Positions 1 to 64,000 of a stretch of 64,000 bases of DNA are shown here, piece by piece (position 1 is the stretch's first letter; each line of letters opens with the position of its first letter). The DNA lies in assembly GCF_004010195.1 (NCBI RefSeq), contig NC_057719.1, positions 34,969,537-35,033,536 of the forward strand, written 5' to 3'. Source of the stretch: Chiloscyllium plagiosum. Its lineage: Eukaryota. The notes beneath the pieces were generated by a model, which searched no databases, was not told where the DNA came from, and saw only the letters and a list, made by a program, of their open reading frames with translations. The position numbers and the translations under genes were made by a program.

Positions 1-1177
1 GTGGGCCAGGAGGGTGCTGAGAGATAAGTGGGAGGGGGCGGTGGGGCTGGGGGAAGGTAGCTGGGAATGTGATAGGTAGATGAAGTTGGGGATGAAAGTG
101 AAAAGTCAGAAACGAGGGTGGAGTGGTTAGGTGGGAAGGAAGATGGACAGGTCAAGAGGGCGATGCCGAGTCGGAGGCTTGGGACTGGGATAAGGTGGGG
201 GGGGGGAAATAAGGAAACTGATAAAATCCACATCGATCCCATGTAGTTACAGGGTTCCAAGGCAGAAGATGAGGCATTCTTCCTCCAGGTGCTGGGTGAT
301 TAGGGTTTGGCGATGGAGGAGGCCCAGGACCTGCATATCCTTGGTGGAGTGGACAGGGCAGTTGAAGTGTTCAGCCATGGGGTGGTGAGGTTGGTTGGTG
401 TGAGTGTCCCAGAGATGTTCTCTGAAACGATCTGCAAGTAGACGTCCTGTTTCTCCGATGTAGAGGAGATCACATCGGGTACAACAGGTACAGGAGATGG
501 CGTGTGTGGAAGTACAGGTAAATTTCATTCTGGATGTGGAAGGATTCTTTGGGGCCTTGGATGGAGGTGAGGGGGGAGGTGTGGGTAGAGGTTTTGCTCT
601 TCTTGTGGTGGCAGGGAAAGGTGCTGGGAATTTGGTGTGGGCTGCTGGAGGGCATGGATCTGAAATGCTGATGGGGTGGGTAGGGAAATATATCGAATGT
701 AGGTGGGGAATACCTGGCCTAAGGGAGACAGGATGGTGTCAAGGTATGCAGCGATGAGGGGCAGGAGCAGGTTCAGACAATGGTACCAACCAATTCCACT
801 GCCCCATGGTTGAACACTTCAACTCCCCCTTCCACTCCACCAAGGGCATGGAGGTCCTGGGCCTCCTCCATTGCCAAACCCTAATCACCCAGCGCCTGGA
901 GGAAGAATCTTCCTCTTGGGACCCTGCCATCACACAGGAACAACGTTGATTTCACCAGTTACCTCATTTCCCCTACCCCCCCCACCTTATCCCAGTCCTA
1001 GTCACCCCCTCCCATTTATCTCTCCGCACTGCCCCTCATACCCCTCTTCGGCCCACAAGCCTCATTCCTGATAAAGGGCTTTTGCCCCAAAACTTCAATT
1101 CGCCTGCTCCTTGGATGCTACCTGACCTGCATCACACTCTCGACTCTGCTCTCCAGCTGCAGTTCTCACTTTCTCCT
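1..1177. mobile_element. Penelope-like retroelement remnant, family A: GIY-YIG end on - (about 1-625) plus inverted copy of the 3' end on + (about 785-1177)
   Basis: ORF 247-528(-) has CTRCDLLYIGETGRLLADRFREH...EHFN...EEECLIFCLGTL, a PLE GIY-YIG pattern. 785-925 is the reverse complement of about 250-400. Decayed hammerhead motif at 1068-1093. Confidence 0.8.
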
Positions 1178-1627
1178 AGTGTGAAGCATATACCTGTCTT
1201 CTAAAATTGGACAAAAAATTTAAGTGCTTTAGTATATACGTTGCAATGTCTGTTCTGCTATTTGATACATAATTCTGTTTTTATAGGAAAAGCAGCAGCA
1301 CATAATGAGAGAGAGAGAAAAATAGGAGGCAGATAGGCCAAATCATCTTGCCATTTTTAAGGGCAATCCACTTAAATACGTGAACAGGACTTTGTAAAGT
1401 AAACATGAAATGGGAATATAAGACTTGGCTCCAGATCATAGGTGAAGTTTAGTGATAGTTTGAGCAAACTGAATTATGCATCGCCCTAATGAGTGAGGAT
1501 GCATCCATAAAATCTGAAAAATGCACTGTGCCACACTGCTTTTAATTACTAAGTTTTCATGTAGATACCAGATAATCGATGTGAAGGCTTAGTTATGCTG
1601 GGTGATGCATTTTCTTTTACTTTGTAG

Positions 1628-1760
1628 GTTGTGCTTAGACTGCATTGCAAAAAATTCCACAGTTTTGCAAAATCAACTTCCATGGTTACCTCATCAATTG
1701 TTTTCTCAAGTGCAAAAGAAAATCACTTTCTGGGTTTCAGCTGGACACCAAGAGAAATAA
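1628..1760 (+). CDS. KLHDC1: KLHDC1 terminal coding exon (kelch domain-containing protein 1; rest of gene lies upstream of the window)
   Basis: Acceptor tttgtag|G at 1627/1628. Reads (R)LCLDCIAKNSTVLQNQLPWLPHQLFSQVQKKITFWVSAGHQEK*, matching recalled human KLHDC1 RSCLDCIGKNSIMLESQISLLPPKLLQQVLKKITFW. Position just upstream of KLHDC2 fits known synteny. Confidence 0.9.
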
Positions 1761-2001
1761 TAATGTATTTTAAACTGCAAGTTTAATTCAAGAAGGTTTG
1801 CGTACATAACATTTAATGATGTATTTCACAATATACATCATTGCAATGAGCAAATGTAATATTTGAGATGTACAAACCCAAATTGGGTTGATTATAAACG
1901 TGATTGTTGTTCTGTTGTACAATATTTTATTCAGTTTTGTAGACTAATTAACATAGCTACTATGTTAATACATTTTATATCATTCTGGAACTAGATTTGG
2001 A

Positions 2002-2374: not shown

Positions 2375-3655
2375 ACGGGTGGTGGTGGAGGGTTGCCTTT
2401 CAGACTTGGAGGCTTGTAACCAGTGGTGCGCCACATGGATTGGTGCTGAGTCCACTGCTTTTCATCATTTATGTAAATGATTTGAATGTGAGCATAGGAG
2501 GTATAATTAGTAAGTTTGCAGATGACACCAAAATCGGAGGTTTAGTGGACAGTGAAGAAGGTTACCTCAGAGTACAACGAGATCTTGATTATCTGGACCA
2601 ATGAGCCGAGGCGTGGCAGATAGAGTTAAATTTAGATAAATGTGAGATGCTGCATCTTGCAAAGGCAAATCAGGGCAGGATTTATATACTTCATGGTAAG
2701 GTCCTGGGGAGTGTTGCTGAACAAAGTGACCTTGGAGGACAGATTCATAATTCCTTGAAAATGGAGTCGCAGGTAGACAGGACAGTGAAGAAGATATTTG
2801 GTAAGCTTGCCTTTAGATTAGATTAGATTAGATTATTTATAGTGTGGAAACAGGCCCTCAGTCGCCCGAGTCGGGAATTGAACCCGGGTCTCTGGCGCTG
2901 TGAGGCAACAGTGCTAACCACTGTGCCACCGTGCCGCCCACTTTACTGGTCAGAATATTGAGTAAAGGAGTTGGAAGGTCATGTTGTGCTGTACAGGATA
3001 TTGGTTTGGCCACTTTTGGAATATTGCGTATAATTCTGGTCTCCCTCCTATCGGAAGGTTGTTGTGAAGCTTGAAAAGATTCAGAAAGGATTTACAAGGA
3101 TGTTGCCACGTTTGGAGGATTTGAGCTATGGGGAGAAGCTGAACAGGCTGGGGCTGTTTTCCCTGGAACGTCAGAGGCTGAGGGATGATCTTATAGAGGT
3201 TTATAAAATCTTGAGGGGCATGGATAGGATAAATAGACATGGTCTTTTCCCTGGGGTGAGGGAGTCCAAACTAGAGGGTGTAGGTTTAGGGTGAGAGGGT
3301 AAAGATTTAAAAGGGACCTAAAGGGCAACTCTTTCACACAGAAGGTGGTGTATGTATGGAATGAGCTGCCAGAGGAAATGGTGGAGGCTGGTACAATTAC
3401 AACATTTAAAAGACATCTGGATGGGTATATGAATAGGAAGAGTTTGGAGAGTCGATAAACGTGGCATTGGAAAAGCACCAGGTCAGGCAGCATCCAAGGA
3501 GCAGGAGAGTTGATGTTTTGGCTATAAGCCCTTTTCAGGAATGTGGGATATGGGCCAACTTCTGGCAAATGGGACTAGATTGGGCGAGGATAATTGGTCA
3601 GTATGGATGAGTTGGACCAAAGGGTCTGTTTCTGTGCTGTACATCTCTTTGACTT
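2375..3655 (+). mobile_element. CR1-clade LINE 3' portion (RT C-terminus and 3'UTR), with nested SINE (2812-2940) and PLE fragment (about 3452-3543)
   Basis: WRLVTSGAPHGLVLSPLLFIIYVNDL...KFADDTKIGG and KLEKIQKGFTRMLPRLEDLSYGEKL motifs, broken by stops and frameshifts. Confidence 0.9.
2812..2940 (-). mobile_element. Internally deleted tRNA-derived SINE (HE1-like)
   Basis: Pol III A/B-box head (tggcacagtggttagc...gggttcaattccc on -) joined directly to a (TCTAA)n tail; CTTTA on both flanks. Confidence 0.75.
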
Positions 3656-5639: not shown

Positions 5640-5735
5640 TGAAAGCAAAACAAAATGCTGGAAATCACAGCGGGTTCGGCAGCATCCACGGACAGAAAGC
5701 ATGCTAACGTTTCGATTCTAGATGACTTTGTCAGA
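5640..5735 (-). mobile_element. PLE-derived short repeat, family D, with decayed hammerhead motif
   Basis: Minus strand CTGACAA-AGTCATCTAGAATC-GAAACGTT followed by ggatgctgccgaacccgctgtgatttccagcattttg. Confidence 0.55.
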
Positions 5736-5744
5736 GATTCCCCC

Positions 5745-6075
5745 TCAGGTTTGTTTACTCACAAAACCCAATCCAACCGTGTGTGTTTTGCTGCTGCAAT
5801 TAAAAGGCCTTCCTCACCTGCGGTCATGTGACCGGAAATCTTCGACGCAACTTCCGACATCCCGGGTCCCTCTTGGAGTTTGTAAACAAGCGGCGGCAGC
5901 GGGAATGCGGTCATAGGTACACGGCTGGGGGTCCTGGGCCTGGAGAGCGAGGGAGTCTTGCGGGAGGCTCGGCAGTTTATGTAGAGGCCTGCGGGATCCC
6001 TTTTACTGGCTTAGCCCGGTATTGGAGGCCGCTGCTCATTGGGGTATGCAGCGGAACGTATGTTGGCGTTAGGCC
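5745..6075 (+). promoter_or_regulatory. CpG-rich promoter and probable non-coding first exon of KLHDC2
   Basis: Local CpG/GC enrichment in an otherwise CpG-poor region. Contains GGTCATGTGACC (E/M-box, 5822-5833), ETS-like CCGGAA (5832-5837) and CTTCCG (5851-5856), and forkhead-like TGTTTAC (5752-5758) and GTAAACA (5882-5888). Possible donor AG|GTACAC at 5916/5917. The ATG exon has its own acceptor at 6444/6445. Confidence 0.65.
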
Positions 6076-6456
6076 CTTCAGTTAGTTTGAAATTCTGTGC
6101 CAGTGCAGATTGCTAACAACCGCAGTATTTTGCTTTTATTCGGGGAATGTGTTTGATTTATGCGGATCTCACTCTTGTTACGCAGACTGCCTAATCATCT
6201 CCAATGTGTGAATGGACTTTATATCCTGATGGCTAAATGTAGCAATATCGACTAATTAGTGATATAATACATTAATAATTCAATTGGTTATTTACTTTTA
6301 ATTGCAATACTTTTTAGATATTCTATTCAGGTTGTAATAAGCTTTGTGACTTTTTTCCACTTACTGAAAGCTTATTTGGGGCCAGGTGAAAAGTGCACTC
6401 AGTGAAGTTACATTGCAGTCAAATGTTGACTATTTTTTGTCTAGAAATTGTGAAAC

Positions 6457-7569: not shown

Positions 7570-7790
7570 GAGGCAGAAGTGAGGACTGCAGTTGCTGGAG
7601 ATCAGAGTCAAAAGTGCAGTGCTGGAAAAGCACAGCAGGTCAGGCAGCATCCAATGAGCAGAAGAGATGATGTTTTGGGCATAAGGCTCCATTGCTGATT
7701 TAAGGGCTTCTGCCCGAAATGTCAACTCTCCTGCTCGTCGGATGCTGCCTGACTTGCTGTGCTTTTCCAGCACCACACTCTCGACTCTGC
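7570..7790. mobile_element. Fold-back PLE-derived element, family A
   Basis: 7605-7682 is the reverse complement of about 7705-7788. One-sided tail at about 7572-7604. TCTGCCCTT on both flanks (7557-7565, 7786-7794). Inserted in a minus-strand CR1 remnant. Confidence 0.8.
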
Positions 7791-11094: not shown

Positions 11095-12530
11095 TATGGA
11101 TATAGGTTTGCTCACTGAGCTGGAAGGTTCGTTTTCAGACCTTTCATCACCAAAATAGGTAACATCAGTGAGCCTCAGGATGAAGCCCTGGTGGTAGGGC
11201 CCACTTTCTATTTGTGTTTAGGTTTCCTTTGGTTGGTGATGTCATTTCCTGTTCTCTTTCTTGGGGGATGGTAAATGGAATCCAAGTCAATGTGTTTGTT
11301 GATAGAGTTCCGGTTGGATGCCTTCTAGGAATCCTTGTCAGTGTCTCTGCTTGACTTGTCTTCTGATGCATGTGTTGTCCCAGTCAAAGTGATGTCCTTC
11401 CTCATCTGTATATAAGGATACTAGTGAGAGTGAGTCATGTCTTTTTGTGGCTACTTGATATTCATGTATCCTGGTGGCAAGTTTTCTGCTTGTTTGCCCA
11501 ATGTAGTGTTTGTTACAGTTCTTGCAAGGTATTTTGTAAATTACATTAGTTTTGTTGTCTGCATGGGGTCTTTCAAGTTCATTAGCTGCTGTTTTTAGTG
11601 TGTTGGGGAGGGTGGCTAAGGTTTCTGGACATGTTTAGTTTGGGTTTGTTGGCAGACTGTGTTCATTGGCTAACCGTTCTTTTTGAATACTCTGTATAGG
11701 TGATTTTCCTCTGCTCTTCGTAGTTCCTCTGCTGCAGTGTGTGGAGGCTCATTGAAATAATGTTCACATGCAGCATCGTTTGTGGGTGTTGGGCTGATTG
11801 CTTCTGAAGAAGGGCTTATGCCCGAAACGTCGATTCTCCTGTTCCCTGGATGCTGCCTGACCTGCTGCGCTTTTCCAGCAACACATTTTCAGCTCTGATC
11901 TCCAGCATCTGCAGACCTCACTTTCTCCTCAATGATTGCTTCTGTAGTTCAGTGTTTGGTCTGTATGTGGTGTTTTCCTAGAGATGCTGGTTTGAAGTTC
12001 CCCATTGGCTGTTTGCTGTACTGCAACATCTAGGAATGGCAGTTTGTTGTTGTTTTCCTCTTTAGTGAATTTTATGCCAGTAAGAATATTATTGATGGTC
12101 TTGGAGGTTTCCTCTAATTTGTTTCGTTTAGTGATAAAGGTGTCGTCTACGTAGCGGACCCAAGGTTTGGGTTGGATGGTTGGCAGAGCTGTTTGAGTCT
12201 CTGCATTGCTGCCTCTGCTAAGAACCCTGATGTCAGAGATCCCATGCGTGTTCCATTGGTTTGTCTGTAGGTTTTGTTGTTGAAGGTGGAGTGAGTGGTA
12301 AGGCATAGGTCCACTAGCTCGACAATACTGTCCTTGCTGATGAAGTTGGTGGTGTTTGGTTCTTCTACTAGTGTAGCCATTGTTTCCTTGGCCAGGTTGA
12401 TGTGGATGGATATGAACAGGGCTGTTACGTCAAAGGATACCATTATTTCATCCTTTTCTGTCTTGGTGTCTTTGGTCTTCAGGAATTCTTGGGTAGCGTG
12501 GATGGAATGGCGTTAGTCTTCTACTAAGTG
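11095..12530 (-). mobile_element. Penelope-like element, family C (RT and GIY-YIG, 5'-truncated, frameshifted)
   Basis: MVSFDVTALF, DLCLTTHSTFNNKTYRQTNGTRMGS, WVRYVDDTF and LPFLDV RT motifs. VIYKIPCKNCNKHYIGQT endonuclease motif near 11490-11550. pLTR with decayed hammerhead near 11135-11172. Confidence 0.9.
11804..11831 (+). ncRNA. Minimal type-I hammerhead ribozyme motif (family A insert 11807-11932)
   Basis: CTGAAGA-A-GGGC-TTAT-GCCC-GAAA-CGTC: intact core, 4-bp stem II, palindromic ACGT stem III, GUC triplet; stem I weak. Confidence 0.6.
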
Positions 12531-13298
12531 TTTTTGTCTTTGATTATAGCTCCTTGGCCAGTCTGTAAGTTGGTATTCCAGGTAGCGAGACTATGGGTCA
12601 GAGAGTATTATGCACCAGTCCAACTTTATTACTTTTTTTCTTCCCACTTAGCAAATTGCAAGAAAAGTGATTTTTCTAAGCATTTAAGGGTCATTGTCTT
12701 TAGGGAGGTTCTACTGAGCAGCAAATTGGACAATTAATTCTTTTAGATACTATGTGGTGAACTTCAAAAGTTGGCTATACCACATATAACAGAAAACCCC
12801 AAAATTACTCTCCGTTTGAAGCATACATGTGAACTTATCAGCTAATCTCAGTAGATACAGCCAGGAAAGTCACTTTTAGCTTTTCCCTTTCCTAAAACAC
12901 ACCAACTGAAATCAGTCAACTCAATTTTCAGTACTTTCTTAAATAATGCTGGAGACGGTAGAAGTTGTAAGGTTGAAGACTTTTTTCACCATGATTGTCA
13001 TAGCAGCCTGGGAAAAGAAGTCAGCTAAGTATCCCATTGGGTCTTTGTTTTGTGGAATTTCACGGTTGAAGATGCACAGCATGTGAAGAGGTAGCTACCT
13101 GAGCTAGTTTCTCAGGCACTGGCATTCATGAGAAACTTCATGAAGAGAGGAATAGGAAGAAATGGCTACATGACCTTCAGTTAGACAAAATGACAGTATA
13201 GACAAAGATTAAAAATGGTTAAAATTTGGCAACATCTGTTTTAATAAACAATTTTAAAAAACTAACTATTTTCAGACAAAATATTTAATTTCCTACAG

Positions 13299-13416: not shown

Positions 13417-13663
13417 GTAACAGCTTTGGACTGTTGAGCAAATGTTCTAATATAGTTAACTACAAAGTTGTTAGATTGTAATCTTTTTTGAAAACTGACT
13501 TGTCAAATGCTTAAATGCAGATATTTATAAAACCATTGTTAATGTTGATTAATTCCATCCCTCTCATTGGCAGCAATCTCCTTCCATGCCTTAACTATCT
13601 GAGATTTGACTTTTCCACTGCTGTCCTGGCTGGTCTCCCGGACTCTACCTGCCTTGCACTTGA

Positions 13664-13842
13664 TGTGGAGGTGCGGGTTTTGGACAGGGATGGTCAAAGT
13701 CAGAAGTCACATGACCCCAGGTTATAGTCCAACAGGTTTATTTAAAATCAGAAGCTTTTGGGGCACTGCTCCTTCGTCACTTTGCTTGATGAAGTGAAAA
13801 TAAACCTGTTGGATTATAACCTGGTGTCGTGTGACATGACTT
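13664..13842. mobile_element. Fold-back PLE-derived mini element, family B
   Basis: caggttatagtccaacaggtttattt (13718-13743) is inverted as aaataaacctgttggattataacctg (13798-13823); same family as the ends of 29379-31639. Confidence 0.75.
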
Positions 13843-14339
13843 TTGCCTTATGCTTGAAGTTATTAAAAATTCTGCTGCCCTTGTCTTAACTCTCGGCAAG
13901 GTTTGATCCTTGTTCTCACTGATCTACCTTGGCTACTGATCAAGCAATGTCTTGATTTTAAAGTTCTCATCACTGTTTCTAAAATTCCTCTTGCCTTGCT
14001 TATCTTTGCAATCTCAAGCCCTACTGAGACATCCGTGTTCCTTTTTAGTTCTGATTTGTTATGCATTCCCAACTGGGCCATGACCTAAGTACAGGAAATA
14101 ACAGCAGCCCCGTTGACACTGCAAATTCCTCTGTCAAAATTGGTTGAGTCCTAAAGAATGTAGCTACTAGACTCTGTCTATGACAGCTGGTGGAAGAACC
14201 AGAAGGAGTCAAAAGCACACCGGATCTCAGCCTCAACAGTCTGCCTGCAGGTGATGCATATGTTAAGGAGTAAAAATTGCATGGTCCTTGTGGAAACAAA
14301 GTCTATTGAGAATACCCTCCATCATATTGTGTTGCATTG

Positions 14340-17569: not shown

Positions 17570-19930
17570 TGTAATTTGGAAATACATAAGCAGAGTCAGC
17601 ATGGCTTCATGAAGGGAAAGTCATGCCTCACAAATTTACCAAGATTCTTTGAGGAGGTAACTAGCAGGATAGATAAAAGGGGAAGCAGTGGATGTAACTT
17701 ATTTGGATTTTCAGAAAGTGTTTGTTTGATAAGATGCTAAACATTAGATCATTTAAGCCAAGAGCCCATGGTTCTGAGGTAGTCTATTAGCCTGGAAAGA
17801 AGATTAGCTAACAGATAGAAGGTGAGTTAGGATAAGTGGGGCTTTTTTATGATGGCAATCTGTCTCTAGTGGAACGCCACAGGGATCAGTGCAGAGACCA
17901 CAACTATTTACAATATATCTGAATGATATGGCTGAGGAATATGAACGTACAATAGCCAAGTTTGCAAATGATGTGGGAAAGCAAATAGTGAAGACAACAG
18001 TCTAAGATGAATATAGACAGGCAAAAACTTGGTTAGATGGGACATAATATGGAAAGTTTTGAGGTTTAGCAGGAGTAGAGGAGGTGAATATGTCCGATAA
18101 ATGGACAGTGTGTGGGGCTTGTTTTCTGATGTGTGTGATACATCAAAATGACCATCTAAGCCTCCTGTGTTAACTAAAATTCAGCTACTAGAATTCTTCA
18201 AATAAAAGGACAATGTAAATTATTTTGGTGCAGGTGTACAGGACTTCTCAGGGGTTTCCAATGTGGAGTAAGACATACCAAACTGATCGCTGTGAGCTCT
18301 TGCATTGATTAGACCAATGAAAATTTAGCTACTCTGTTCCCCCAATTAAATAGAATTTATTTGTCAATCTCTTAGCTATGAGAGTACTGTACTTGGAATA
18401 GTGCCAAGAACAGAAATAGTTTAGGGGAGCAATAATCAATTTGTAAATTTGAAGTGCAGAAAACTGGGAAAAGAGTATCTCCTTTACTTCTCCTATATAA
18501 GTCTCTTTTCAATCAATACTTGAAGAAAATGGAGCATACTTGAAGTTGTCTTCCAATTGGCCATGGAGAAAGTTTCTGCAAGCAGAGTAATATCTGTGAC
18601 AACAGCCTGAGACTGTACAGTACTGATGCTGCTGTGGCAACTGATCTTCATGTTTCAAGTGTGGATGATATGGCAATTTGTACTGGCCTGTTCTTGATTA
18701 TGGCCATGATGAGTCGAGATTGTGGTGCTAGAAAAACACAGCCAGTCAGGCAGCCTCCGAGGAGCAGGAGAATCGTCGTTTTGGGCATAAGCCCTTCATT
18801 CCCAATGCTTTGCAAGCACCACATTCTCAACTCTGATCTCCAGCATCTGCAGTCTTCACTTTCTCCTGTGGCCATGATGAGAGCTGCTTCTGTGAGGCAT
18901 CACTGGATACTAATCCTAGTAACTGGTCACAATAAGTGATCCCTGACACTCATCTGAGCAACCGTGCTAACGGCTCCCATTCAGTGTAAAAATCAACGCT
19001 ACAACTTTGGTGCAATGGACCAACAGGTCAACTAATTATTTAATGGAGAAAGAGGCTACAGGACAGGGGATATGGGATTCTTTGTGCATGAATCCCAAAA
19101 ACCTAGCATCCGAGTTCATTGAGTAATTGGACGGCAAATGGAATGTTAGCTTGGGAATGGAGTTTTTAAAAACAAAGGAGCAAGTTTTAGCAAATACCAT
19201 GCAAACACTAGGAAGAAAAATAAAAGTTATGATGGTGAACAAGAAGAAAGATTTGCATTCAAATCCTATTGGAAAGAAGAGCAGAACTTCAAGGTAGACA
19301 TACCTCGAACAGAGGTAGTTGTGGATTACACACAAAACTGAAATAAAGAACTGCAAGTGCATGAGACCAGGACTAACTCTGTTCTTTTGTTTTATTATTA
19401 AAGTAAGAAAGTTTTGCTAAAACTGTACATAGTGCTAGACAGACTACAGTTGGAATACTGAGAGTTGTTTGGGCCCTTTTCCAGGGAAAGATATTCTGGC
19501 ATTGGAGGAAGTCCAGAGAAGGTTCACTACGCTGTAACAGGTATTGAGGAAGTTTTTTCTTTTATGAGTAGAGTTTGATTAGTTTAGGCCAGTACTCATT
19601 GCAGCTCAGAAGAATGAGAGGTGATCTTATTGATCCATGCAGGATTCTTAAGGGACTTGGCAGGGTAGATTTGGAAAGGTTATTTCCCTTTATGGTCTAG
19701 GTCCAAAGGGTATATCTCAGAAAAAAGGGGTTGTACATTTAAGACGCAATTGAAGAGGGATTTCTTCTGAGGGTAGTGATTCTGTGGAATTCTTTACAGC
19801 ACAGTGTTGTTGAGACTGTGATAAATTTAATCAAAGCTAAGGTGGAGAGATTTTTAATTAGTTACAGAGATAAAGCGGGAAAGTGGAGTTGTGGGTTATC
19901 AATTCAACCATGATCTTGGTGGATGGCAGA
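17570..19930 (+). mobile_element. Fragmented CR1-clade LINE remnants
   Basis: agtcagcatggcttcatgaagggaaagtcatgcctcacaaattt, ttggattttcagaaag and gtccagagaaggttcact segments, interrupted by other sequence. Confidence 0.7.
18714..18868. mobile_element. Fold-back PLE-derived element, family A, with 13-bp TSD
   Basis: TGGCCATGATGAG at 18701-18713 and 18869-18881; minus-strand arm followed by a plus-strand end with tail. Confidence 0.8.
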
Positions 19931-20482: not shown

Positions 20483-20578
20483 AGCTGAAAATGTGTTGCT
20501 GGAAATGCGCAGCAGGTCAGGCAGCATCCAAGGAGCAGGAGAATCGACATTTTGGGCGTGAGCCCTTCTTCAGGAATC
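20483..20578 (-). mobile_element. PLE-derived short repeat, family A
   Basis: Minus strand attcCTGAAGAAGGGCTCACGCCCAAAATGTCgattctcc; the GAAA core has decayed to AAAA. Confidence 0.75.
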
Positions 20579-21779
20579 AGTCACCCCACAATAAACTAAC
20601 ACTATTAATAACTGAAGTTGGAACCTCCAATGTAACAAATCTGCTGTTAGTGATATTTTTTTTTAATGTTCATTCATGTGATATCAACTTTGATTAGTCA
20701 GCCCCTTGAGTTTGCTGTGCCATTTAAAACGGTCGTGGCTGATTTCATCTTTGTCCCATCTCCCTTTTCCTGTCCATTCTCCATAGCCCTTTAACTCATC
20801 ACTAATTAAAAATCTGGCCATCTCCTCATATTTACTCAATGTCCCAATTGCACCACATTCTGGGACAGTGCATTCCACATGTCATGCTCATTTGAGAGAA
20901 GTAATTTCTCCTCATCTCTTGTTTTCAATCTGCCAGCCCTTATTTTAAAGCTTTGACTTCTCATTTCAAATTGTCGCGAAGAGAAAACATCCTCGCTAGA
21001 TCAACTTTGTCAATCCTCTTTAGTATCTTTATATACCTTGATTAGACCTCCCATTCTTCAAAACGCAAGAATATAGACCTAAACTGCTCAATCTGTCTTC
21101 TGGAATCAATCAAGTAAATCTCCTCAACTGCCTCCAATGTAACTACATCTCACCTCAAGTAAGGGGACCAAAATTGAACACAATACTTCTCCCTAATTTC
21201 CGTGGAGTAGATAATGTTGAAATTCTATCTTTAACTGCTACAGTTATTTGGGTTTCTCAGTGCTGTTAGGAAAGCAGTTGCAGGGTTTTCAGTCTGTGAC
21301 GGTGAAGTAACAACAATATAGTTCCAAGTCAGGATGGTGTGTGACTTGGGCTTTTGCAGGTGGTGATGTTCCCATGTTTCTTTCATCCCTCCCTTCCAGG
21401 TGGTAGAGAATACACATTTGGAAAGGGCAGTCAAAAGAGCCTTGGTGAGTTACTGCAATGAATCATGTAGATATGCATGCACTGCTGCCACTGTGAATTG
21501 GTGGTGAACGGAGTAAATGCTGAAGGTGGTGGATATAGTGCCAGTCAAGCAAGATGACTTGTCCTGGAGGCAGCCTGCTTGATTAGTATTTTTGGACATG
21601 CACTCATTCAGGCATGTGGAGAGTGTGGTCAGATTACCAGCAGCAGCAGAAATGCCTTTGAGACTGGTTAGGAGCTACAATGCTGCATGCTGGGATCCTT
21701 GGTCACGATAGTTTAAATCTGACCTTGATTAAAGCTGCAGCCAGAACTGTAAACTGTCACCTGCAGCTTCCTGTGTTAT

Positions 21780-27306: not shown

Positions 27307-29378
27307 AAGCTCAATTGACAAGTTTGTAATTGCTGGGCTTATCCTTACAAGCCTTTTTTTTTTAAAAACAAGGATATTGTATTTGTAATTCTCCTGGTCT
27401 CCAGAACCACCCTGGAGTCGAGCTATTTTCTAATCAACCAATTCATACGTTGTGAAATACCTCTGAAGCAGATGGGACTGTACCATGAGAGGCCCTACCA
27501 GTCTAAGTAATAGTCAAAGATTATTGCCAGTTTCCCTGGAATTTCCTCCCCATTTCAATATATTTGTATGTGTTTCATCTAGTCATGGTGCCTTAAATTT
27601 TAAGAACGAATAGTCAATCCAATATCATCTCCTTATTCAGTTGAAGAAGTTTAACTTGATAAGTTTCCTTTTCTGTCACCATGGACTGGGCAGCAGCTTG
27701 TTCCTCGATGAAGACATATGAAACATCTCAGCTTTGCCCATTACCTTCATGTGTTAGTACCTATAGTTTTTAGTCACTAATCAGCCCTACTCTATTTACA
27801 ACGCTTATGCTGTTTAAATGCCTACTGAATACTGGATTTTCCTGTTAGCTGCTAGTCTTCTTTAAGTGTTGCAAAGATGAATTTTTATTTACATTTTTAC
27901 CTCTGTTCTGAACCTTCTATAATCAGCTTTATTCTCAAATGTCTTTTTTATATGGTTCCTGTTATAAGGATACCTTATTATTTCTTTATAATTATCTCTA
28001 TCTCCTTTCTCATTGAGGGCTCTTTGCTGACTCACCCTTTTTGTTTTGAGTGAATATTCTTTAACATACCCAAACGATTTGTATTTTTGAAGATAACCCA
28101 TTGTTCAGCTGCGGTTTTTCCTGTTGGTTCTAGTCTATTCAGCACAGCTCTGTTCTTGTCCAATTGAAGTCAGCTCTCCCCCAGTTAATTATTCTACCTC
28201 TAGATTTTCCTTTGTTCTTTTTTTACTGTCACCCTAAACCTTACGATACAGTGAGCGCTACCCTCTCTGCTCATTGTTTTCCCACTTCATCTACTTTGTC
28301 CTCCTCGACCTGGAAATCAGGGCCAGCAGTGCCTCCTTTCTTGTTGGATTGAACAGATACTGCTATAGAAAATTTCTCTGAACACTATCTAGGAACTTTT
28401 CTGCTTATTAACTGAATATAGACTAGACTAATGTAATCGAAGTACCCATTATAACTACTATGATGTCTACACTTCTCTGTAATTTCTGTGTGTTTGTTTC
28501 TGTACATTCTTCCCACTAATTTGTTATTGAGGTGTGTCTGGAGACACATTTAGGTCAAACTAGCAGTTTCCTTCTCTAAAGGACATTAGTGAACCAGGTT
28601 TTAATTCCAGATTTCTTTGAATTCAAATTTCATCAACATTTCATCCAGAACATTGAGTTGTGTATCTGGATTACTAATCCATTGACATTACTACTCCTCC
28701 ACCTCCCTTTTGTAAGTAAGTGTCTCATCAGTTTCTTCCTGTTTAGATTTTTTGAAGTTATTTGGAATCACTTCCTTACTGTGATAGTGTAGTATAGCAC
28801 AAATTGTTGTAATGTGATTCATTGATCATAACAGAAAGAAGGATCTTTCATCATAAACTTCTGTAATGTCAGTAACTCTATTAAGAAATAGTTCTATTAT
28901 TTTGGCATTTTACTGTGGTTCCTTTTTTACATTTTGATAATTATGAAAATAAAACCAGATCGAACACCTAGCATCAAATGATGTACCACAAATGATCAAA
29001 ACACAAAATCCTCCTCTGTGATATCTCTGGACTTGTGGCCAAATGGGAAAGCACTCACAATGTTGCGTTGAGCAACAGCCTGAAATGGTCATGCTCACTG
29101 AATCATACCTTACTGCTAATGTGTCAGACTCCTTGATCATCATTCATGACTATGTCCTATCTCACCATCAGGAAAGACCCATCAGAGGTGGCAGCACAGT
29201 GGTATACACTCAGAAGAATAAGTTACTGAAAGTTTTCAACATTGATTCTTGTCTTTATAAAGTTTCATGTCAAGTCTGACATGGGCTTTAATATTCAGGA
29301 GCAGAATTAGGCGATTGAGCCCAAGTTTGCACCATCATTCAAACATAGCCGATATGTTTCTCAGCCTCATTCTCCTGT

Positions 29379-36954: not shown

Positions 36955-37067
36955 GGTACAATCTCCTGATCAGATTCCTGTTGGCCGTTCTTGGCATTCA
37001 CTTACTACAATCTCAAATGACCATCTGTTCCTTTTTGGAGGTTTCACGACAGACAAACAACCGTTAA
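36955..37067 (+). CDS. KLHDC2: KLHDC2 coding exon 9
   Basis: ttgctag|VQSPDQIPVGRSWHSLTTISNDHLFLFGGFTTDKQPL(S)|gtatgt, 113 nt. Confidence 0.93.
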
Positions 37068-41895: not shown

Positions 41896-42583
41896 TAAAT
41901 ACCATTTGCTGAGTGAGCGTATTGAGGTATAAGTTCAGCAAAAGTCATGGTTGTGTAATATAATGGTTCTGCAAGGACTAACTTTGGAGACTGCACTAAG
42001 CTTCACCCATGTTGATGCCACGTGGGCACGAGCAGTGATGACACAGAGCATCTTAGGATCTTGTTGACTGGAAACCTATATCCTAGTTCTTCCAGTCGTC
42101 TGAATCACCAAGTTTTTTACTGAAGTAACTTGTACCTGATCCCTATCATGCAATAAACTGCATCCTGTTCAAGACAAGAGCTTCTTCTCATTGAGACCTT
42201 ATTGTTGATAGTAACCACCCCTAACCATAAGCTGCCAGTGATTGGCATCCCAGAATATACAACATCCAGAATACAATAACTCTTTTTTACCCTCATGGAG
42301 CCCTGCAGCTCCACATCAGAATGTAAGTTTTTGGAGGACACAACTCAAATCTATTTAAAACCAAACTTCTTATTTGCATCTTCACAATTTAAATGATATT
42401 CACATGTAAGTGAATTTTTCAAAAAAAAAATTAGTCTTCTGAAATTAAAAATGCATTATAGTGAGTTATGAAGTTCCCATATCTTTATAAAAGCATAATC
42501 TGTTACTAATATTTTACTGGGCTAAAAATTACAATAAGTTTCCTTCAGCTTTAGACAGGTTAAACATCTGTACAAGAGAGTAG

Positions 42584-42645
42584 GAGAAAGTGAGGACTGC
42601 AGATGCTGGAGATCAGAGCTGAAAATCCAGCAACACGTTTTCAGC
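42584..42645. mobile_element. About 62-bp minimal family A PLE insertion (tail plus short inversion)
   Basis: Flanked by TCTGTACAAGAGAGTAG at 42567-42583 and 42646-42662; the interior matches the family A 3' end in both orientations. Confidence 0.75.
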
Positions 42646-43280
42646 TCTGTACAAGAGAGTAGCTAATTAATTAATTTGTTAAATTATTTCACTATGTTCC
42701 TGCACTGTAGCCATGAAAAGTATGAATATAGAGCCTCTGTGTAGGTTTTAGCATCTAATATTTATTTGGATGGAAATGTTGTGCAGGAACGGAGGAAAGG
42801 CAGGTGATTGGCACCGAGTAATAGAACAGATGCAAATATAATCGGCCACATGGCCCCCTCCTATGCCATGACCGTTCTGCGATTTCATGGTAAATGAGTA
42901 AAATGAAGTGTTAAGGAATTTTAAAAAAAAAAATCTCCATACTCATTTGTTTAACTTCACTGCCCAGAACTTGGTTTCTGCTTCAATGCAGCAGAAGATA
43001 TTGCTAGTGAGTGAGTAGCAAGTTACTTTACCCATAATAAGTAGCCTTATGGTCTTATACTAGTAGGAATTTTGGTTCCTCAGAATAATATAGTCAGAGC
43101 CAAGTCAGTGGCACAGGGACAAAACAGCTGTACAGGAGCTGAGGAAGAATAATAATGGAAGAATAGTGCTTCTAGAAGCATAGAAACGAAGAACAGGAGC
43201 AGGCCATCCAGTCCTTCAAGTCTGCTCTACTGTTCAATGTGATTGTGGATTATCCTCTATCTCAATGCCATTATACCCAG

Positions 43281-43730
43281 TTTTGGATGTAGGTTTGCTC
43301 ACTAAACTGGAAGATTCATTTTCAGATGTTTCATCACCATACTAGGTAACCTCTTCAGTAAGCCTCCCGATGAAGCACTGCTGATGATTCCTGCTTTCTA
43401 ATTAATGTTTGGGTTTCTTTTGGTTGGTGATGTCATTTCCTGTTTTTTCTCAGGGGGGTGGTAAATGAGGTCCAAGTCAATGTGTTTGTTGATTGAATTC
43501 CGGTTGGAATGCCATGCTTCTCGGAAATCTCGTGCAAGTCTCTGTTTGGCTTGTCCTAGGATGGTTGTGTTGTCCCAGTCGAAGTGGTGTCCTTCCTAGT
43601 AGTATGTAGGGATACTAGTGAGAGAGGGTCATGTCGTTTTGTGGCTAGTTGATGCTCATGTGTCCTGGTGGCTAGTTTTCTGCCTGTTTGTCCAATGTAG
43701 TGTTTGTTACAGTCCTTGCACGGTATTTTT
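43281..43730 (-). mobile_element. Penelope-like element, family C, 3' part (GIY-YIG and pLTR)
   Basis: Clearly homologous to 11095-11535. Minus strand CTGAAGA-G-GTTACC-TAGTAT-GGTGAT-GAAA-CATC at 43324-43358. Confidence 0.85.
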
Positions 43731-52017: not shown

Positions 52018-52156
52018 AATTACAAATCACACAACACCTGATGAGAGCGGTGCTCTGAAAGCTCATGCTTTCAATTTAACCTGTTGGACTATAACCTGGT
52101 GTTGTGTGATTTGTAACTTTGTACACCCCAGTCCAACACTGGCATCTCCAAAATCA
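52018..52156 (+). mobile_element. Family B PLE mini element with hammerhead motif and 13-bp TSD
   Basis: GAACATTTTACCA at 52005-52017 and 52157-52169. CTGATGA-GAGC-GGT-GCTC-T-GAAAGCTC at 52038-52064. Short 5' inversion and 3' tail. Confidence 0.8.
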
Positions 52157-57027: not shown

Positions 57028-58331
57028 CTGAAATCGAACAATACAAATTAAACAGTTTAGTTCATGTGTGTCAAATATACTTGTCTCTATTAACTGAATT
57101 TCAGCTACCTCAAAAATGTCAACAGTGCAATGAGTGTTACTAAAATTGCAAAGGTTTCATTCAAGTACAAAACAATCAATATTTGCAAATACATTCTGGT
57201 AAATTAAGTTTAACTTTTTGATTTAGAGACCAGCTGTTTTGTTTAAAGCAAATTTCTATTTGCGCCGTTCTAAAGGGTCACCCGATCCATAATGTTAACT
57301 GATTTCTCTCCACAGATGCTGCCAGACCTGAACTTACTCAACAATGTTTTTTGTTTCTATTTGTGCTTTTGATTTATTCCCCTTAATTACTACATTGTTT
57401 CAAATTTTCTTTCAAACGTTCTTTCCATTTTGTTCTGCCGTTTTGCAACAGACATTTTTTGGGGGGTCAATTGATCGTGGTCACCATTCGGTAGCTTTTA
57501 ATTTGTTATAAACCAGGGAGTGTTAATTGGGAAGAGCTATTATTTCATACGTGGGAATTATTTAAACACCTGCTGATGAGAGTTCAACACTGGCACATTC
57601 CAGTAAGGAGGGAGGACAAGAATGGCAAGGTAAAGGACCCTTGGAAAACAAGAGAGGTTGTGAATTTAGCCAAAATGAAAAAATAAGCAGATGTAAGGTT
57701 CAGGAAGCTAAAATCAGACAGGGCCTGCGAGGAATATAAGGAAAGCATGAAAGTACTTGAGCAGGGAATTAGGAGAGGAAGAAGGGGCCATGAAATTACC
57801 TTGGCAAGTAGAGTTAAAGAGAATTCCAAGGCACTCTATACATATTTTACAAACGAGAATAAACCAGGGAGAAGATAGAACTACTCAAGGATAAAGGAGG
57901 GAACTTGTGCTTGGAAGCAGAGAATGTAGGTGAAATCCTAAATGAGTACTTTGCATCAGTATTCACCCAGGAGAAGGATATAGAGGATTGTGAGATTTGT
58001 ATGGAGCTAATATGCTAGGATTAGTGGTGCTGGAAAAGCACAGCAGTTCAGGCAGCATCCAAGGAGTAGTTTGCTAGGGTATTTTGAGATCAAGAAAGTA
58101 GTATTGTTGGATCTCTTGAGGAGCATTAAGGTAGATAAGTCCCCAGGGCGTGATGGTATCTACTCCAGGTTACTGAAAGAGGCAAGAGAGGAGGAGATTG
58201 TTAGGGCCTTGACCAAGATCTTTGTATCCATGCTAGTCACTGGAAAGGTCCCAGAGGAATGGCAAGTTCCTTTGTTCAAGAAGTGAAACAGGGATGTTGT
58301 GGTTCTGTTCACCGAGCTGGGAATTCGTGTT

Positions 58332-58371
58332 GCAGACGTTTCGTCCCCTGTCTAGGTAACATCCTCAGTGC
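58332..58371 (-). ncRNA. Minimal type-I hammerhead ribozyme (sense in NEMF pre-mRNA)
   Basis: Minus strand GCA-CTGAGGA-T-GTTACC-TAGACA-GGGGAC-GAAA-CGTC-TGC. Confidence 0.72.
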
Positions 58372-58631
58372 TTGGAAGCCTCCTGTGAAGCGCTTCTGTG
58401 ATCTTTCCTCCAGTATTTGTAGTGGTTTGAATCTGCCGTGGTCGGTATATTGGGTCCAGGTCGATGTGCTTATTGATTCATCCACAGATTCAATCAATAA
58501 GCACATCGACCTGGACCCAATATACCGACCACTGCAGCGGACAGCTGGAACTGACAACTGGAAGCGGCAGATTCAAACCACTACAAATGCCAGAGGAAAG
58601 ATCACCAAAGCGCAAAACAGGAGGCTCCCAA

Positions 58632-58669
58632 GCACTGAGGATGTCACCTAGACGGGACGAAACGTCTGC
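58632..58669 (+). ncRNA. Minimal type-I hammerhead ribozyme
   Basis: GCA-CTGAGGA-T-GTCACC-TAGAC-GGGAC-GAAA-CGTC-TGC: stem I GCA/UGC, intact core, stem II, palindromic stem III, GUC site at 58664-58666. Confidence 0.75.
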
Positions 58670-61079
58670 AACACAAATTCCCAGCTCGGCGAACAGAACC
58701 ACAACAACGAGCACCCGAGCTACAAATCTTCTCACAAACTTTGAAATAGGGATAATTCAGGAAACTACAGACCAGCGAGTCTCACATTGGTGGTTGGGAA
58801 GCTATTGGAGAGAATTCCTAAGGATAGGATTTATGCACATTTTGAAAAACATGGCCTAATTGGGGTCAGTCAACATGGCTTTGTGCAGGTCAGGTCATGT
58901 CTTACCAACTTAATTGAATTTTTTTTCAGGTGGCAGCAAAGGTGATCAATGTGGGTAGAGTAGTGGATGTTGTTTACATGGATTTTAGTATGGCTTTTGA
59001 CAAGGTTCCTCATCGTAGAAGATAAAGATGCATGGGAGTCATGGATTCAGAATCGGCTTACCCATAGAAGACAGAGGGTAGTGGTGGAAGGGTGTTTTTC
59101 AGGCTGAAGGTCAGTGATTTGTAGTGTTTTGCAGGGATCCGTACTGGGACCTTGGCTGTTTGTAATAGATATCAGTGACTTAGATGAACATACAGATGGG
59201 TGGGTTAATAAATTTGCAGATGATACAAAGATTGGTGGAGTTGTGGTTAGTGAAGGAGGCTGACAGGGTACAGCGGCATACAGATCAGTTATAGATATGG
59301 GTGGAGAAATGACGGATGGAGTTTACTCTGGTTAGTGTGAGGTGCTGCAGTTTGGGAGATCAAATGTTAAGGTAAAGTATACAGTTAATGGCAGTACTCT
59401 GAACACTGGTGTACAGAAGGATCTTAAAATTCAAGTCCATAGCTCCCTGAAATTGGGTACTTAAGTAGATAGGGTGGTAAAGGCGGCATTTGGCATGCTT
59501 GGTTGGGGAAATGAGTATAAGCGACATGATGTCATGTTGCAGCTTTATAAGAATTTGGTTAGACCACACTTAGAGTATTGCATTCAGTTCTGTTCACCAC
59601 ATTACAGAAAGGATGTGGAGGCTTTGCAGAGAGTTCAGAAGAGGTTTACCAGGATGTTGCCTGGATTAGAGAGAGTATGAGCTATAAGGAGGCTAGAAAA
59701 ACTCAGGTTGTTTTCTTGAGGCTGAGGGGAGAATAGAAGATAATAAAATTATGAGATGCATAGACAGGGTTGACAGTCAAAGTTTTTCCCAGAATTGAAA
59801 TGTTTAATACTAGGGGCATGCATTTAAGGTGAGAGGAGGAAAGTGCAAAGGAGTTGTGAGGGGCAAGTTTTTTTTTAAAATGCAGAGAGTTGTAGGAGTC
59901 TGAAACGCACTGCCAGGGGTTGTGGTTGAGGCAGATACAATAAGGGCATTTAAGGGACTTTTAAATAAGCACATGAATATGGAGGGATATAGATCAAGGG
60001 CAGTCAGAAGGGATTAGTTCCATTTGGTATGATGTTTGGCACAATATCATGGGTTGAAGGGCCTGTTCCTGTGTTGTATTGTTCTATGTTCTCCTACTTG
60101 AAAGCAAAATTAAAAACCTTCCGGACTCTGTGAGAGCTCTGACACCACCCACTCTTGTCTCATTTAAAAAAAAACACCCAGGGAAAATTCAAAAGCTGTT
60201 TACCAACTGTCTGAAGGAGACATTCTACTCCCACTGTGGCAAAAGTCCTCTACAAGAGAAACAGCACTAAACACTACTCTCTTAAAGACATAATCTCATC
60301 ACAAATTCCAGATTATTTTTATTTAATTCAAATTTTACCCTCTGCCATGGTGGTTCTGGGTAACTGGTCAAGTGACACTGCTACTACATCACCCACCATT
60401 TAAGGTTTATACACTCTGTCCATTAATTTCCTTTCTCAGTGCTTTATGGTGGCATTGTCACTTGCCTAGTAATCTAGAACCAGGTTTCACAGACAGTGAA
60501 ATGTGAATTAAATAAAATCTGGAATTTACAACTACCAAATGGTGACCATCCTTATCTGGTCAGCCCTACAAGAGACTCAGGGCTTACAGCAATGTGGTTG
60601 ACTCTTAAGTGCTTTCTAAAACGTCTGAGCAAGCCATCTGTTCAAGGGAAGTTAAGGATGGGCAATAAATGCTGGCCAAGCATGATGCTCACATTCCATG
60701 AACAAATTTAATAACAAAGTATTTTTTTAAAAAAAAACAATTTTAATAAAGCTTCAGTGGACCTGAAATGTTAACTCTCTCCACTGTAATTCCAAATGGC
60801 AACAGGATTAGGCCAGTTGACTCTGCTTGTTTAATACAACTGTGATTGATGGAACAATTCAATGCCTTTTACCCACATTATCCTCATAACCCTTTATGCC
60901 ATTGGGAGTTAGAAATCCATGAATATCTACCTTAAACATATTTTAAACGACTGAAGTTCCACAGCCATCTGAATTATTGAATATTTGGAATTCTGTATTT
61001 ATCTGTGAACAAATGTGTCCTCATCTTGGTCCTTAATTTCATATTTTGCCCCATTCTACATTCCCCAACCAGGACAATC

Positions 61080-61965
61080 ACCACCAGGACATCGCTGTGG
61101 GAGTTCCTCAGACTAGTCTCCTCGGCCCAACAATCTTCAGCTAATTCATCAATGACCTCCCTCTATCATAATGTAGGAAGTGGGGATGCTTGTCAATGAT
61201 TTCCCAATGTTCAGCACCATTCACAACTCCTCAGATACTGAAGCAGTCAATACATGTCCAAATGCAGCAAAACAACATTCATGATTGGGCTGAAAAGTGG
61301 CAACATGTTACACAAATGCCAGGCAATGACCATCTCTGGCAAGAGAAAATTGAACCATCACCCCATGACATTCAATGGTGGTTCCATTATTAATATCCTG
61401 GGGGTTACCACTGACCAGAAACTCAACTGGACTCTCCATATAAAATGCAGTGATTACAAAAGCAGGACAGAAGCTAGGAATACTGCAGTGAGTAACTCCC
61501 ATCCTGACTCCCCAGTGCCTGCTCACCATTTACAAGGAACAAATCAGGAGTGTGATGGAATAATTACCACTTGTCTGGATGGGTGCAACTCCAACAACAA
61601 AAATTTTTGACACATTCAGAACAGAGCAGCTTGCTTGATTGGCACCACATCCACAAACATCAAACCACTCCAACACCAAAGCTCAGTGGCAGCAATATGA
61701 ATTATCTACAAAATGTACTGCATAAATTCACCAAAATTGTTAGTAGCCCCTTCTAAACTCACAACCACCCCCCCCCCCTCCATGTCGAAAGATAGGGGCA
61801 GATCAGCAGATACATGGAAACACCACCACCTGCAAGTTCCCCTCCAAGCCACACTTGGAAATGTTGCTGGGTCAACATCCTGGAATTCCCTCCCTAATGG
61901 CATTTTGACTCTACTTATAGTATATGGACTGTGATTCAAGAAGGCAGCTCACCACCAACTTTCAA
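61080..61965 (+). mobile_element. Decayed CR1/L2-group LINE 3' portion
   Basis: DWAEKWQ, KCQAMTIS and INILGVTTDQKLNW motifs. Confidence 0.7.
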
Positions 61966-61999
61966 GGTAAACAGACCAAAATTCCATTCAGCTTTTATA

Positions 62000-64000
62000 C
62001 AACTGAAGCAAGGCTTCAATATTCCTGTTTCTGGATTAGAGGTGCTGAACTCAAATCCTGCAATAAAGGCTAACATTCCATTAGCCTTCCTTATACCTTG
62101 CTCCATCTCTATGACAGCCTTCAGTGGCTTGTTGAATACAATAACTTTGTACATCAACATTTTCCAACTTCTTGCCATTTAAGAAATTCCCAGTATATCT
62201 GTCTCTCCTGCCAATGTGGATAACCTCACATTTTCCACATTAGATTCCATTTGCCATGCTCTTGCTTACTTATTAAACCTGAAGCAACTCTGCATCCTCT
62301 CCACAGCATGTTTCTCACTTAGCTTTATATCAACTGCGAATTGGGAGATATTACATTTGAATCCTACATCCAAATCTTTCAATATATATTATGAACATCT
62401 GGGGACCAAGTACTGATCCTTGCAGTATCCCACTAGTCATGGGCTGTTGACAGTGTGGTGCTGGAAAAGCACAGCACGTCAGACAGCATCCGAGGAGCAA
62501 AAGAACAGAGGTTTCGGGCATAAGCCCTGCATGAGGGCTTTCCTCTAGCATCTGCAGTCCTCACTTTATACGAGTCATAGGCTGCCAATGTTAGAATGAC
62601 TTGTTTATTCCGACTGTTTTCTGCCTAGAATCACTGAGTTTCATGAAGAGATACAAAAGCAACCCCAGCCTATCTAGCCTCTGTTCATAGCAGGAACACT
62701 CCAACCAAGGCAATTTCCTGGTGAATCCCCTTTGTACCCCATCTAATGTAACCACATCATTCCTAGAGTTTAGTAAGCAGAATTGCACAGCTGTAACCCA
62801 ATTGTCTTTATAGGTCCTTCACAACCTCCCTGCTTTTTAATCAATGCCCTGACCAATAAAGGCAAGTATCAATCCCCACCAGAAAAAAATGCCTCCTTAA
62901 CCACCTCATTCACTCAATCTGTTGCCTTAAAAGGATCTATGAACATGCACACCAAGGTTCCTCTGATCCTTTTACTTCCTAGGATTCTACAATTCATGGT
63001 GTACTCCCTTGCCTCTCACTTGTACAGATTAAATTCCATTTGCCACCTGCTGTGCCTCATCTGACCAACCTGCCTGTATTATTCTAAGGCTTTCCTCATT
63101 GGCATTTACCATTGGCACTGGCATTTTCAGGTCACCTGATCAAATCTTTTATATTTGTGTCTAGGTAATTATGTGCACTATAACAGCAAGGGACTCAGCA
63201 ATGAACACTGCAGATGCCACTGGACATAGACGTCCAGTCACAAAAGCAATCTTCAACGATCTGCCTCCTTCCATTAAACCAGTTTTGGATCCAATTTGCC
63301 ATACTGCCCTGTATCCCTTGGGTTGTTACCATCCTGAGCAGACTCTTATGCAAGACTTTATCACTGTCTTACCGAAGTCACTGTAGACTACATCAACTGC
63401 AGTACCCTGAGCCACACCTAGTCACCTCCACACAACTCAAATCAAACCTGTCAGAGAAGATCACCCCCTGACAAAGCTAGACTGACTATCCATGATTAAT
63501 CCTGATCTCTTGAAGTGTAGACTAGTTCTGTCCTTAAGAACTTTTCCCAGAAGTTTCCCTACCAGTGATACTAGACTCACTGGTTTCTAGTTCTTTGATT
63601 TATCCTTACCACAGTTCTTGAATAATGCTATCACATTATTGTCCTCCAGTACCTCTCCAGTGACCAAAAAGATAAGCCTATTAACCAATCCTTAATCCAT
63701 GGTGGTAAATTACCCACTATCCCATGTACTTTAATTTTGCCAAACAATTTCTTTTGGGAGGTGGGAGAATCGTATCAAAAGTCTGAAGATCCTAGTAAAC
63801 TACATCCCTGTATCAATTTTATTAATAACCTCCTCAAAAACTCCAACAAATTTGTGAAACATTATTTCCTATTTACAAATCCATGCTGACCATATCCATC
63901 AGATTATTATTATCCAAGTATTCAGTTATTTCATCCTGTATAATATATTCTATTGTAGCCCTGTTGTTGATGTACGGCTAACAAGTCTACAGTTCCTTCT
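62000..64000 (-). mobile_element. CR1-clade LINE fragments
   Basis: SGILQGSVLGPQMFIIYI and LDGVQRGFTRKLP remnants on -. Confidence 0.7.
62447..62572. mobile_element. Family A PLE mini insertion with about 12-bp TSD
   Basis: AGTCATGGGCTG (62435-62446) / AGTCATAGGCTG (62573-62584). Confidence 0.75.

Follow-up and report, generated by a model that had tools for sequence, protein, structure and literature searches.

Hammerhead-bearing Penelope-like elements and the ends of their short inserts in the genome of Chiloscyllium plagiosum

Inserts at the locus and their parent elements

A 64,000-nucleotide stretch of the Chiloscyllium plagiosum genome (positions 34,969,537 to 35,033,536 of contig NC_057719.1, assembly GCF_004010195.1), here called the window, holds a series of repeats that flank, in non-coding sequence, an exon giving a weak KLHDC2-type kelch match and that are almost certainly 3′ ends, each a pseudo-long terminal repeat plus tail, of Penelope-like elements (PLEs) bearing hammerhead motifs. 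A preliminary description of the window had listed such repeats at 16 sites and grouped them into at least four families, A to D. All 16 sites (seven of family A, four of B, four of C, and one of D) are members of the families proposed for them and lie at or near the positions reported. The four families stand, but family C consists of two lineages, C1 and C2, the linkage to protein-coding sequence that had been seen for A, B, and C extends to D, and two family A inserts had been missed (Table 1). Both the CTGANGA and the GAAA blocks are kept at five of the 16 sites (11804, 29495, 43358, 58368, and 58635), and the complete motif, as recognized by a strict descriptor (core, stem II of ≥4 bp, palindromic stem III, NUH, and stem I of ≥2 bp), is present at three of them (11804, 58368, and 58635). 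Because the copy at 11804 begins at the core, its stem I is a chance pairing with the flank. The remaining window copies are decayed through substitutions, often CpG decay, or small deletions.

In natural long copies of all four families, the motif is tied to upstream GIY-YIG endonuclease (EN) and reverse transcriptase (RT) sequences, for family D at loci elsewhere in the genome, which bears out the suggestion of several parallel PLE lineages with minimal hammerheads. Matches to the Pfam RVT_1 and GIY-YIG models were obtained for 7 of 11 element fragments, several of them below the curated cut-off. The Cys linker (CX2-5CxxC) upstream of GIY-YIG is present in A and B, partly decayed in D, and absent from C1 and C2; in family C an ATG lies where stem II begins, and the frame stays open through the tail, while the open reading frame (ORF) of subfamily A2 appears to begin ~40 nt past the tail. 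By these motifs, A, B, and D are predicted to be Neptune-type and C (C1 and C2) Poseidon-type. The RTs of A and C2 share 28% identity. The best protein match of the A RT is a shark protein (87% identity), among many ~900-aa relatives that combine RT and GIY-YIG, which agrees with the shark-like host surmised in the preliminary description; a sequence search of the PDB with the C2 RT returned 0 matches. The long open frames of the long copies consist mostly of N gaps. At loci L369, L371, L375, and L376 an inverted hammerhead stands at one and the same distance from the RT, which suggests recent duplication or amplification of a composite insert, and at L173:776-9901 a long tandem array with a short unit (multiples of ~14 bases) lies beside a family A GIY-YIG remnant.

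Table 1. PLE inserts in the window (UTR, untranslated region; core, position of the hammerhead core)
Positions	Strand	Insert	Details
19..1177		Family A long copy with 5′ inversion	GIY-YIG remnant 247-504 on −; + part 785-1177 with EN end, 3′ UTR, decayed hammerhead (core 1068), tail
3468..3546	−	Family A stub	Decayed hammerhead (core 3538); 5′ end near −8
5653..5734	−	Family D stub	Decayed hammerhead
7577..7789		Family A head-to-head pair	One tailed, one tailless; 9-bp target duplication
11097..12620	−	Family C1 copy, Poseidon-type by motif	Broken RT, thumb, GIY-YIG, hammerhead with deletion (core 11168); interrupted by A stub; upstream end approximate
11804..11931	+	Young family A stub nested in C1 copy	Intact core from exactly C3; tailed; 12-bp target duplication
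13662..13843		Family B head-to-head pair	Decayed hammerhead (core near 13780, −)
18711..18867		Family A head-to-head pair	13-bp target duplication
20483..20580	−	Family A tailless stub	Core 20573, G12 changed
29376..31640	both	Family B long insert	12-bp target duplication; on −, RT thumb, Cys linker, GIY-YIG, TATA box, hammerhead (29495), tail; on +, inverted copy, hammerhead (31559), tailless
42582..42649		Tiny family A head-to-head pair without hammerhead	17-bp target duplication; missed in the preliminary description
43279..43729	−	Family C1 GIY-YIG end, 3′ UTR, hammerhead	Core 43358; stem III palindrome broken
52030..52153	+	Family B tailed stub	13-bp target duplication; stem II deletion
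58020..58070	−	Family A fragment beginning 3′ of hammerhead	Missed in the preliminary description
58295..58745		Family C2 head-to-head pair	Two complete hammerheads (58368 −, 58635 +); tail on + copy only
62446..62567		Family A head-to-head pair	Decayed hammerhead

The hammerhead motif and its abundance

The shared motif is a minimal type I hammerhead of the PLE kind and a predicted ribozyme. Its core, CUGANGA / GAAA / NUH, is intact in tens of thousands of copies, with H17 being C, A, or U depending on the family (D ends in GUU). Counted on both strands of the 3.56-Gb genome, exact cores number 52,878 for A, 4,952 for C, 2,906 for B, and 29 for D, against 0 for the reversed patterns used as controls; a looser B pattern has 11,464 matches genome-wide, and since family D is old, its exact count understates the family. 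In 464 kb of unselected sequence (the window, the adjoining 200 kb, and 200 kb of another contig), the strict descriptor gave 18 matches, compared with 0 in each of 30 shuffles. Scanning for known hammerheads, as the preliminary description had proposed, divided by method: the descriptor recovers the three window sites named above, whereas the Rfam scan gave no hammerhead family match at E≤10. Many thousands of near-complete hammerhead cores in this genome thus escape Rfam.

Stem pairs were counted by descriptor, since MAFFT alignment across families misaligned the motif, in 153 long copies with a parsable core (A 33, B 42, C1 29, C2 34, and D 15), so that the counts are conditional on an intact core. 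Pairs 2-4 of stem II vary among A, B, C1, C2, and D with pairing kept, the exception being an A-G mismatch in C2, and stem II has the G10.1-C11.1 pair and an extra 5′ base. The families had been said to share a core while their stem II sequences differ yet remain paired, and loss of the core or of this covariation had been named as grounds for abandoning the idea; both are intact. Stem III is a loopless palindrome, ACGU in A, C, and D and AGCU in B, which CpG decay disrupts in many old copies. Stem I has 2-4 bp, in A only 2 bp plus a U-U mismatch, and its first pairs are C-G/U-A in A, C-G/A-U/C-G in B, U-A/C-G/G-C/A-U in D, A-U/C-G/U-A or C-G in C1, and A-U/C-G/G-C in C2. Compensatory changes therefore distinguish the families in stems I and II and in the stem III palindrome, and within C1 the third stem I pair has changed from U-A to C-G in 6 of 29 copies. 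Conservation of core and stems in five lineages, accompanied by compensatory changes, indicates that the hammerhead is probably under selection in the master elements. The predicted fold contains stem II in five of six natural copies, with overall stability that is not unusual, and the predicted minimum fold of monomer or dimer is not the active three-way junction. In this the motif agrees with the minimal hammerhead ribozymes (HHRs) of metazoan PLEs, described as cleaving weakly and only as multimers (PMC4209133), and with that of an anole Poseidon, described as protein-assisted (PMC11167929).

The genome also holds at least two further old hammerhead families related to A and D, with other stem II and stem I pairs (L067:200-260, L291:600-710, L365:590-650, L251:3080-3250, and L004:300-520); the probe that detected them found none in the window.

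Ends of the inserts and their likely origin

Most copies of families A, B, and D are stubs of 60-135 bases that start just before the motif. In what follows, 5′ ends are numbered from C3 of the CUGANGA core (negative values lying upstream) and 3′ ends from the predicted cleavage site. The survey of 5′ ends took in copies from the unselected sequence and bystander copies at loci retrieved for other families; 22 natural reference copies served for scoring, and copies interrupted by N or truncated at a locus boundary were censored. Among copies reaching +10, ends fell within +10..−20 in 86 of 113 A, 29 of 50 B, and 7 of 9 D copies, compared with 1 of 23 in C (Fisher tests against C, 7e-11 and 7e-6), and farther upstream, beyond −20, the loss in each 10-nt step was mostly <0.1. 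A repeat on core-selected loci, of which 27/30 (A), 29/30 (B), 29/29 (D), and 27/30 (C) could be scored after duplicate removal, gave the same picture (A 15/27, B 12/29, D 16/29, and C 1/27). Young A copies were tallied by eye in the first 100 of 39,262 matches listed, which lie on one contig, include two local duplicates, and stem from a search pattern that loses some short copies. In 35 of them (one ambiguous) the match carries on for 15 nt, and in the other 65 it extends 0-7 nt upstream (6, 14, 8, 13, 15, 5, 3, and 1 copies, respectively). The sharp fall after −4 is confirmed by 67 young A stubs (55 drawn from the short matches of that listing and 12 others). Because counts drop past −4, the A limit is placed at −4; the limits of B and D lie at ~−8 and ~−4. 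A second cluster of B ends lies at −44..−47, just above the TATA box (6/15 at risk), in the L236/L237 region (G000 C10, beside the window) and in a G000 C3 stretch; it may reflect subfamily or reference divergence or a real second limit.

The preliminary description regarded these lineages as ribozyme-processed, a view under which their short inserts would be copies of hammerhead-cleaved RNA. The conservation of core and stems across five lineages, and the weak dimeric cleavage reported for related minimal HHRs (PMC4209133), favor such a template, which would nevertheless yield inserts that start at +28 and lack the core, whereas most stubs keep it. No 5′-end peak occurs at the cleavage site in either the unselected or the core-selected loci; ends fall within +20..+29 in 5 of 126 A copies, and of 14 ends at +28..+34, 8 belong to older sister families that match only in their downstream part and just 1 is a true A copy ending exactly at +28. 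An apparent peak was rejected on the same grounds, the bump at +28..+46 being largely due to older sister families. The end distribution therefore refutes cleaved RNA as the main source of the inserts, a role we consider highly improbable, although it may make a minor contribution.

The limits of A, B, and D instead lie at a constant distance from an upstream element. In long copies, a box is found at −40 in B (TATAAA, 37/56 matches, 69 long copies), at −35 in D (CATAAA, 5/9 matches, 14 long copies), and at −36/−34 in A (TTATCT, 27/35 matches, 40 long copies), so that although the box-to-core distances differ, the 5′ limits of all three families lie ~31-32 nt below a TATA-like box, which is the usual spacing between a TATA box and the start of transcription. 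Family C has TATAAA at −48/−53. The A limit is the A of TCATTC, which we take to resemble an initiator. Copying of a cap would give an untemplated G at the junction, and in 9 of 15 copies the base before the −4 junction is a G (p 0.007); several such Gs belong to the target or the partner, but where a single untemplated base could be resolved, it is G in four of five cases. The untemplated G at −4 is suggestive only. A larger count, 24 G of 53, was set aside, as it includes long A2 copies along with Gs that derive from the partner. Two other readings of the 5′ limit were rejected: a splice acceptor, there being no AG before −4 in A, and permuted-hammerhead cleavage, for which there is no room for stem I. 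A TATA box and initiator have been proposed for the pseudo-long terminal repeat (pLTR) of a rotifer element (PMC3846280).

The 3′ ends and the arrangement of copies supply a second line of evidence. All families have two 3′ end sites ~35 nt apart (A ~+62/+98, B +55/+92, and C +41/+76). Of the 67 young A stubs, 35 have a head-to-head partner; exactly one end is tailed in 34 of these 35 pairs and two in none, and in 26 pairs the other end lies at +57..+70. Target duplications measure 9-17 bp in 44 of the 67, 6-8 bp in 7, and were not found in 16. One-sided tails are a known PLE feature and fit the behavior of an anole Poseidon element in vitro, in which two internal RT start sites define the tail and both strands are primed (PMC11167929); there, HHR cleavage is unnecessary for insertion. 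Two composite loci are also informative. L359, a partial tandem, runs from a pLTR that begins at −48 through a tail, the ORF start, and a deletion to a second pLTR. L360 starts at ~−2, continues beyond the tail for ~300 nt, as far as the ORF start, and is there connected to another copy whose own start is at ~−5; the whole lies inside one target duplication, an arrangement that we infer to be a run-off followed by a template jump.

The stubs might also represent separate tiny non-coding families. Such SINE- or retrozyme-like lineages (SINE, short interspersed nuclear element) would have short masters of their own and use PLE proteins in trans, and the very high copy number, the near-identity of young copies, and the composition of the A subfamilies (A1 mostly short, A2 more often long) are in their favor, as is the publication of pLTR-derived retrozymes (bioRxiv 10.64898/2026.07.22.740005). 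However, short and long copies have common diagnostic haplotypes. In a comparison set that includes query-selected copies, seven of the eight commonest A haplotype classes mix long and short copies, the youngest class holding 10 long and 56 short, and 25 of 38 short B copies have a long nearest neighbor. Moreover, the stubs vary at their 5′ ends, lack the upstream box, and form no tandem arrays, the few close direct repeats examined being local duplications or partial tandems with ORF sequence. Separate lineages are thus an unlikely source, although solo long pLTRs that keep the TATA box could act as one-generation donors, and the stubs have the appearance of products inserted by the autonomous families.

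Collectively, these observations support a reading, to which we give a probability of about two in three, in which the short inserts arise by run-off reverse transcription from inside uncleaved element RNA. The TATA-like box would direct an RNA polymerase II start 4-9 nt before C3, so that the RNA would begin with the short 5′ strand of stem I. The element protein would nick both target strands and prime at two positions within the RNA, ~60 and ~98 nt beyond the cleavage site, a step drawn from the in vitro anole Poseidon result (PMC11167929). Priming at the downstream pLTR copy would give long, EN-bearing inserts, whereas priming at the 5′ pLTR copy would give a run-off cDNA of 95-135 nt that extends to the predicted capped 5′ end and is integrated alone or as a head-to-head pair. 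The stubs, which lack the TATA box, would be dead ends. The hammerhead would be selected in the masters, probably for dimer- or protein-assisted cleavage, but cleavage would not have set the ends of these inserts. We lean slightly toward the further view that the stubs are equivalent to retrovirus-like "strong-stop" cDNA and record the transcription start, the two RT sites, and two-strand priming, with the hammerhead at the capped, uncleaved 5′ end and self-cleavage having no part in insertion.

The same 5′ limit might instead mark the point at which the RT falls off past a protein-bound hammerhead, or at which EN cuts the new DNA at the ATT before the A core. The A limit does lie at an ATT, the triplet that the anole enzyme prefers (PMC11167929), and the ends spread over several bases with microhomology. 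The limits of B and D, however, have no ATT, a structural stall would be expected 3′ of the stems, the distance to the TATA-like box is constant in three families, and an untemplated G is not predicted; we regard this account as doubtful.

Several observations weigh against run-off from a promoter-defined start. The 5′ ends of young A copies span ~8 nt and those of old copies more, the A box is non-canonical, and family C has a TATA box but no pile-up. The cap-G signal comes from five cases, the other Gs being explained by target or partner sequence. An intact full-length element was not recovered, the long copies at the 8 + 30 loci inspected containing assembly gaps or deletions. In RNA run X21 (3,990 reads) there is no pile-up of molecule starts, the run being unable to show starts, and 92% of the reads continue into unlike sequence and both orientations occur, so that they are mostly passenger transcripts; run X22 gave 0 matching reads. 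In addition, a self-priming antisense model for head-to-head copies has been published (PMC3846280), and the Penelope element of Drosophila virilis is reported to have a TATA-less internal promoter (PMC2377424). Within X21, the commonest listed 5′ loose end at a true junction is at −4 (177 reads), which merely mirrors the genomic junctions, and a second at +15 stems from private changes in the reference; no RNA ends gather at the predicted cleavage site.

Other features of the window are as follows. The exon with the weak kelch match (KLHDC2/KLHL20/DRC7) lies at 36794-37321 (+), and a host gene, presumably KLHDC2-like, probably spans much of the window. A GC-rich segment at 5800-6100, ~100 bp from the family D stub, has what we take to be E-box- and ETS-like motifs and is possibly the host gene promoter. 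RT remnants of long interspersed nuclear elements, assumed here to be CR1/L2-like, occur at 2377-3658, 21795-22837, 39100-40490, 53145-53740, and 58747-59986, with the C2 insert inside one of them, and another SINE-like interspersed repeat has nested inverted copies at 2142-2244, 26057-26618, and 54840-55134. An assembly gap occupies 38370-38995 (614 N in the window); elsewhere, gaps often fall inside long PLE copies.

Relation to known elements

One in vitro system has so far been described for the study of how PLEs copy themselves and what purpose their hammerheads serve (PMC11167929). The present genome offers a very large record, in part very young, from which the two ends of the copied RNA are readable to the base. 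This record supports internal two-site, two-strand priming in vivo, argues against cleavage setting the insert ends, and yields precise predictions that promoter and start-site tests could address. Neither these shark families nor stubs limited at a start site were described in the literature searched, which did not extend to Repbase, Dfam, or most subscription journals; the families may be present in the two databases.

Minimal hammerheads were reported in the pLTRs of metazoan PLEs (Xena, Poseidon, and Neptune) by Cervera and De la Pena (2014, PMC4209133). The motifs described here share with theirs a loopless palindromic stem III, an extra base between A9 and stem II, the G10.1-C11.1 pair, and a short stem I, and in both cases many families occur per genome, mostly as single copies tied to truncated PLEs. 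In contrast, family A alone has 52,878 exact cores, compared with ~4,000 in the coelacanth and ~9,000 in Xenopus in that study, which, in the sections available, names no shark and does not map the ends of truncated copies.

Families A, B, and D resemble the Neptune PLEs of Craig et al. (10.1101/2021.04.23.441226) in their C-terminal GIY-YIG with an upstream CX2-5CxxC linker and in their 5′ truncation, inverted 5′ copies, and 30-40-nt tail on one end, but differ from what is described there in that most copies stop at the 5′ edge of the ribozyme. Microsatellite targeting, a further point of comparison, was not seen in the flanks inspected, which were viewed without counting. Family C resembles the Anolis Poseidon element PAc (Frangieh et al. 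2024, PMC11167929), having no Cys linker, an ATG where stem II begins, and a frame open through the tail, and the two 3′ end sites of PAc recur in all families here. Unlike the situation described for PAc, the putative run-off stubs occur in the Neptune-type families and not in C, and the A2 ORF appears to begin ~40 nt past the tail.

The stubs are also short, non-coding, pLTR-derived, and hammerhead-bearing, as are the non-LTR retrozymes (PMC7229834; bioRxiv 10.64898/2026.07.22.740005), and the latter account reports PLE-derived retrozymes in its one chondrichthyan. Unlike retrozymes as presented in these sources, they are dispersed monomers or head-to-head pairs with target duplications and minimal HHRs, and do not form tandem arrays bounded by cleavage sites: the seven close pairs examined are local duplications, partial tandems, or separate inserts, with no genome-wide tandem search made. 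The basic system has been in print since 2014, the shark families are new members of it, and their insertion signature is possibly unreported.

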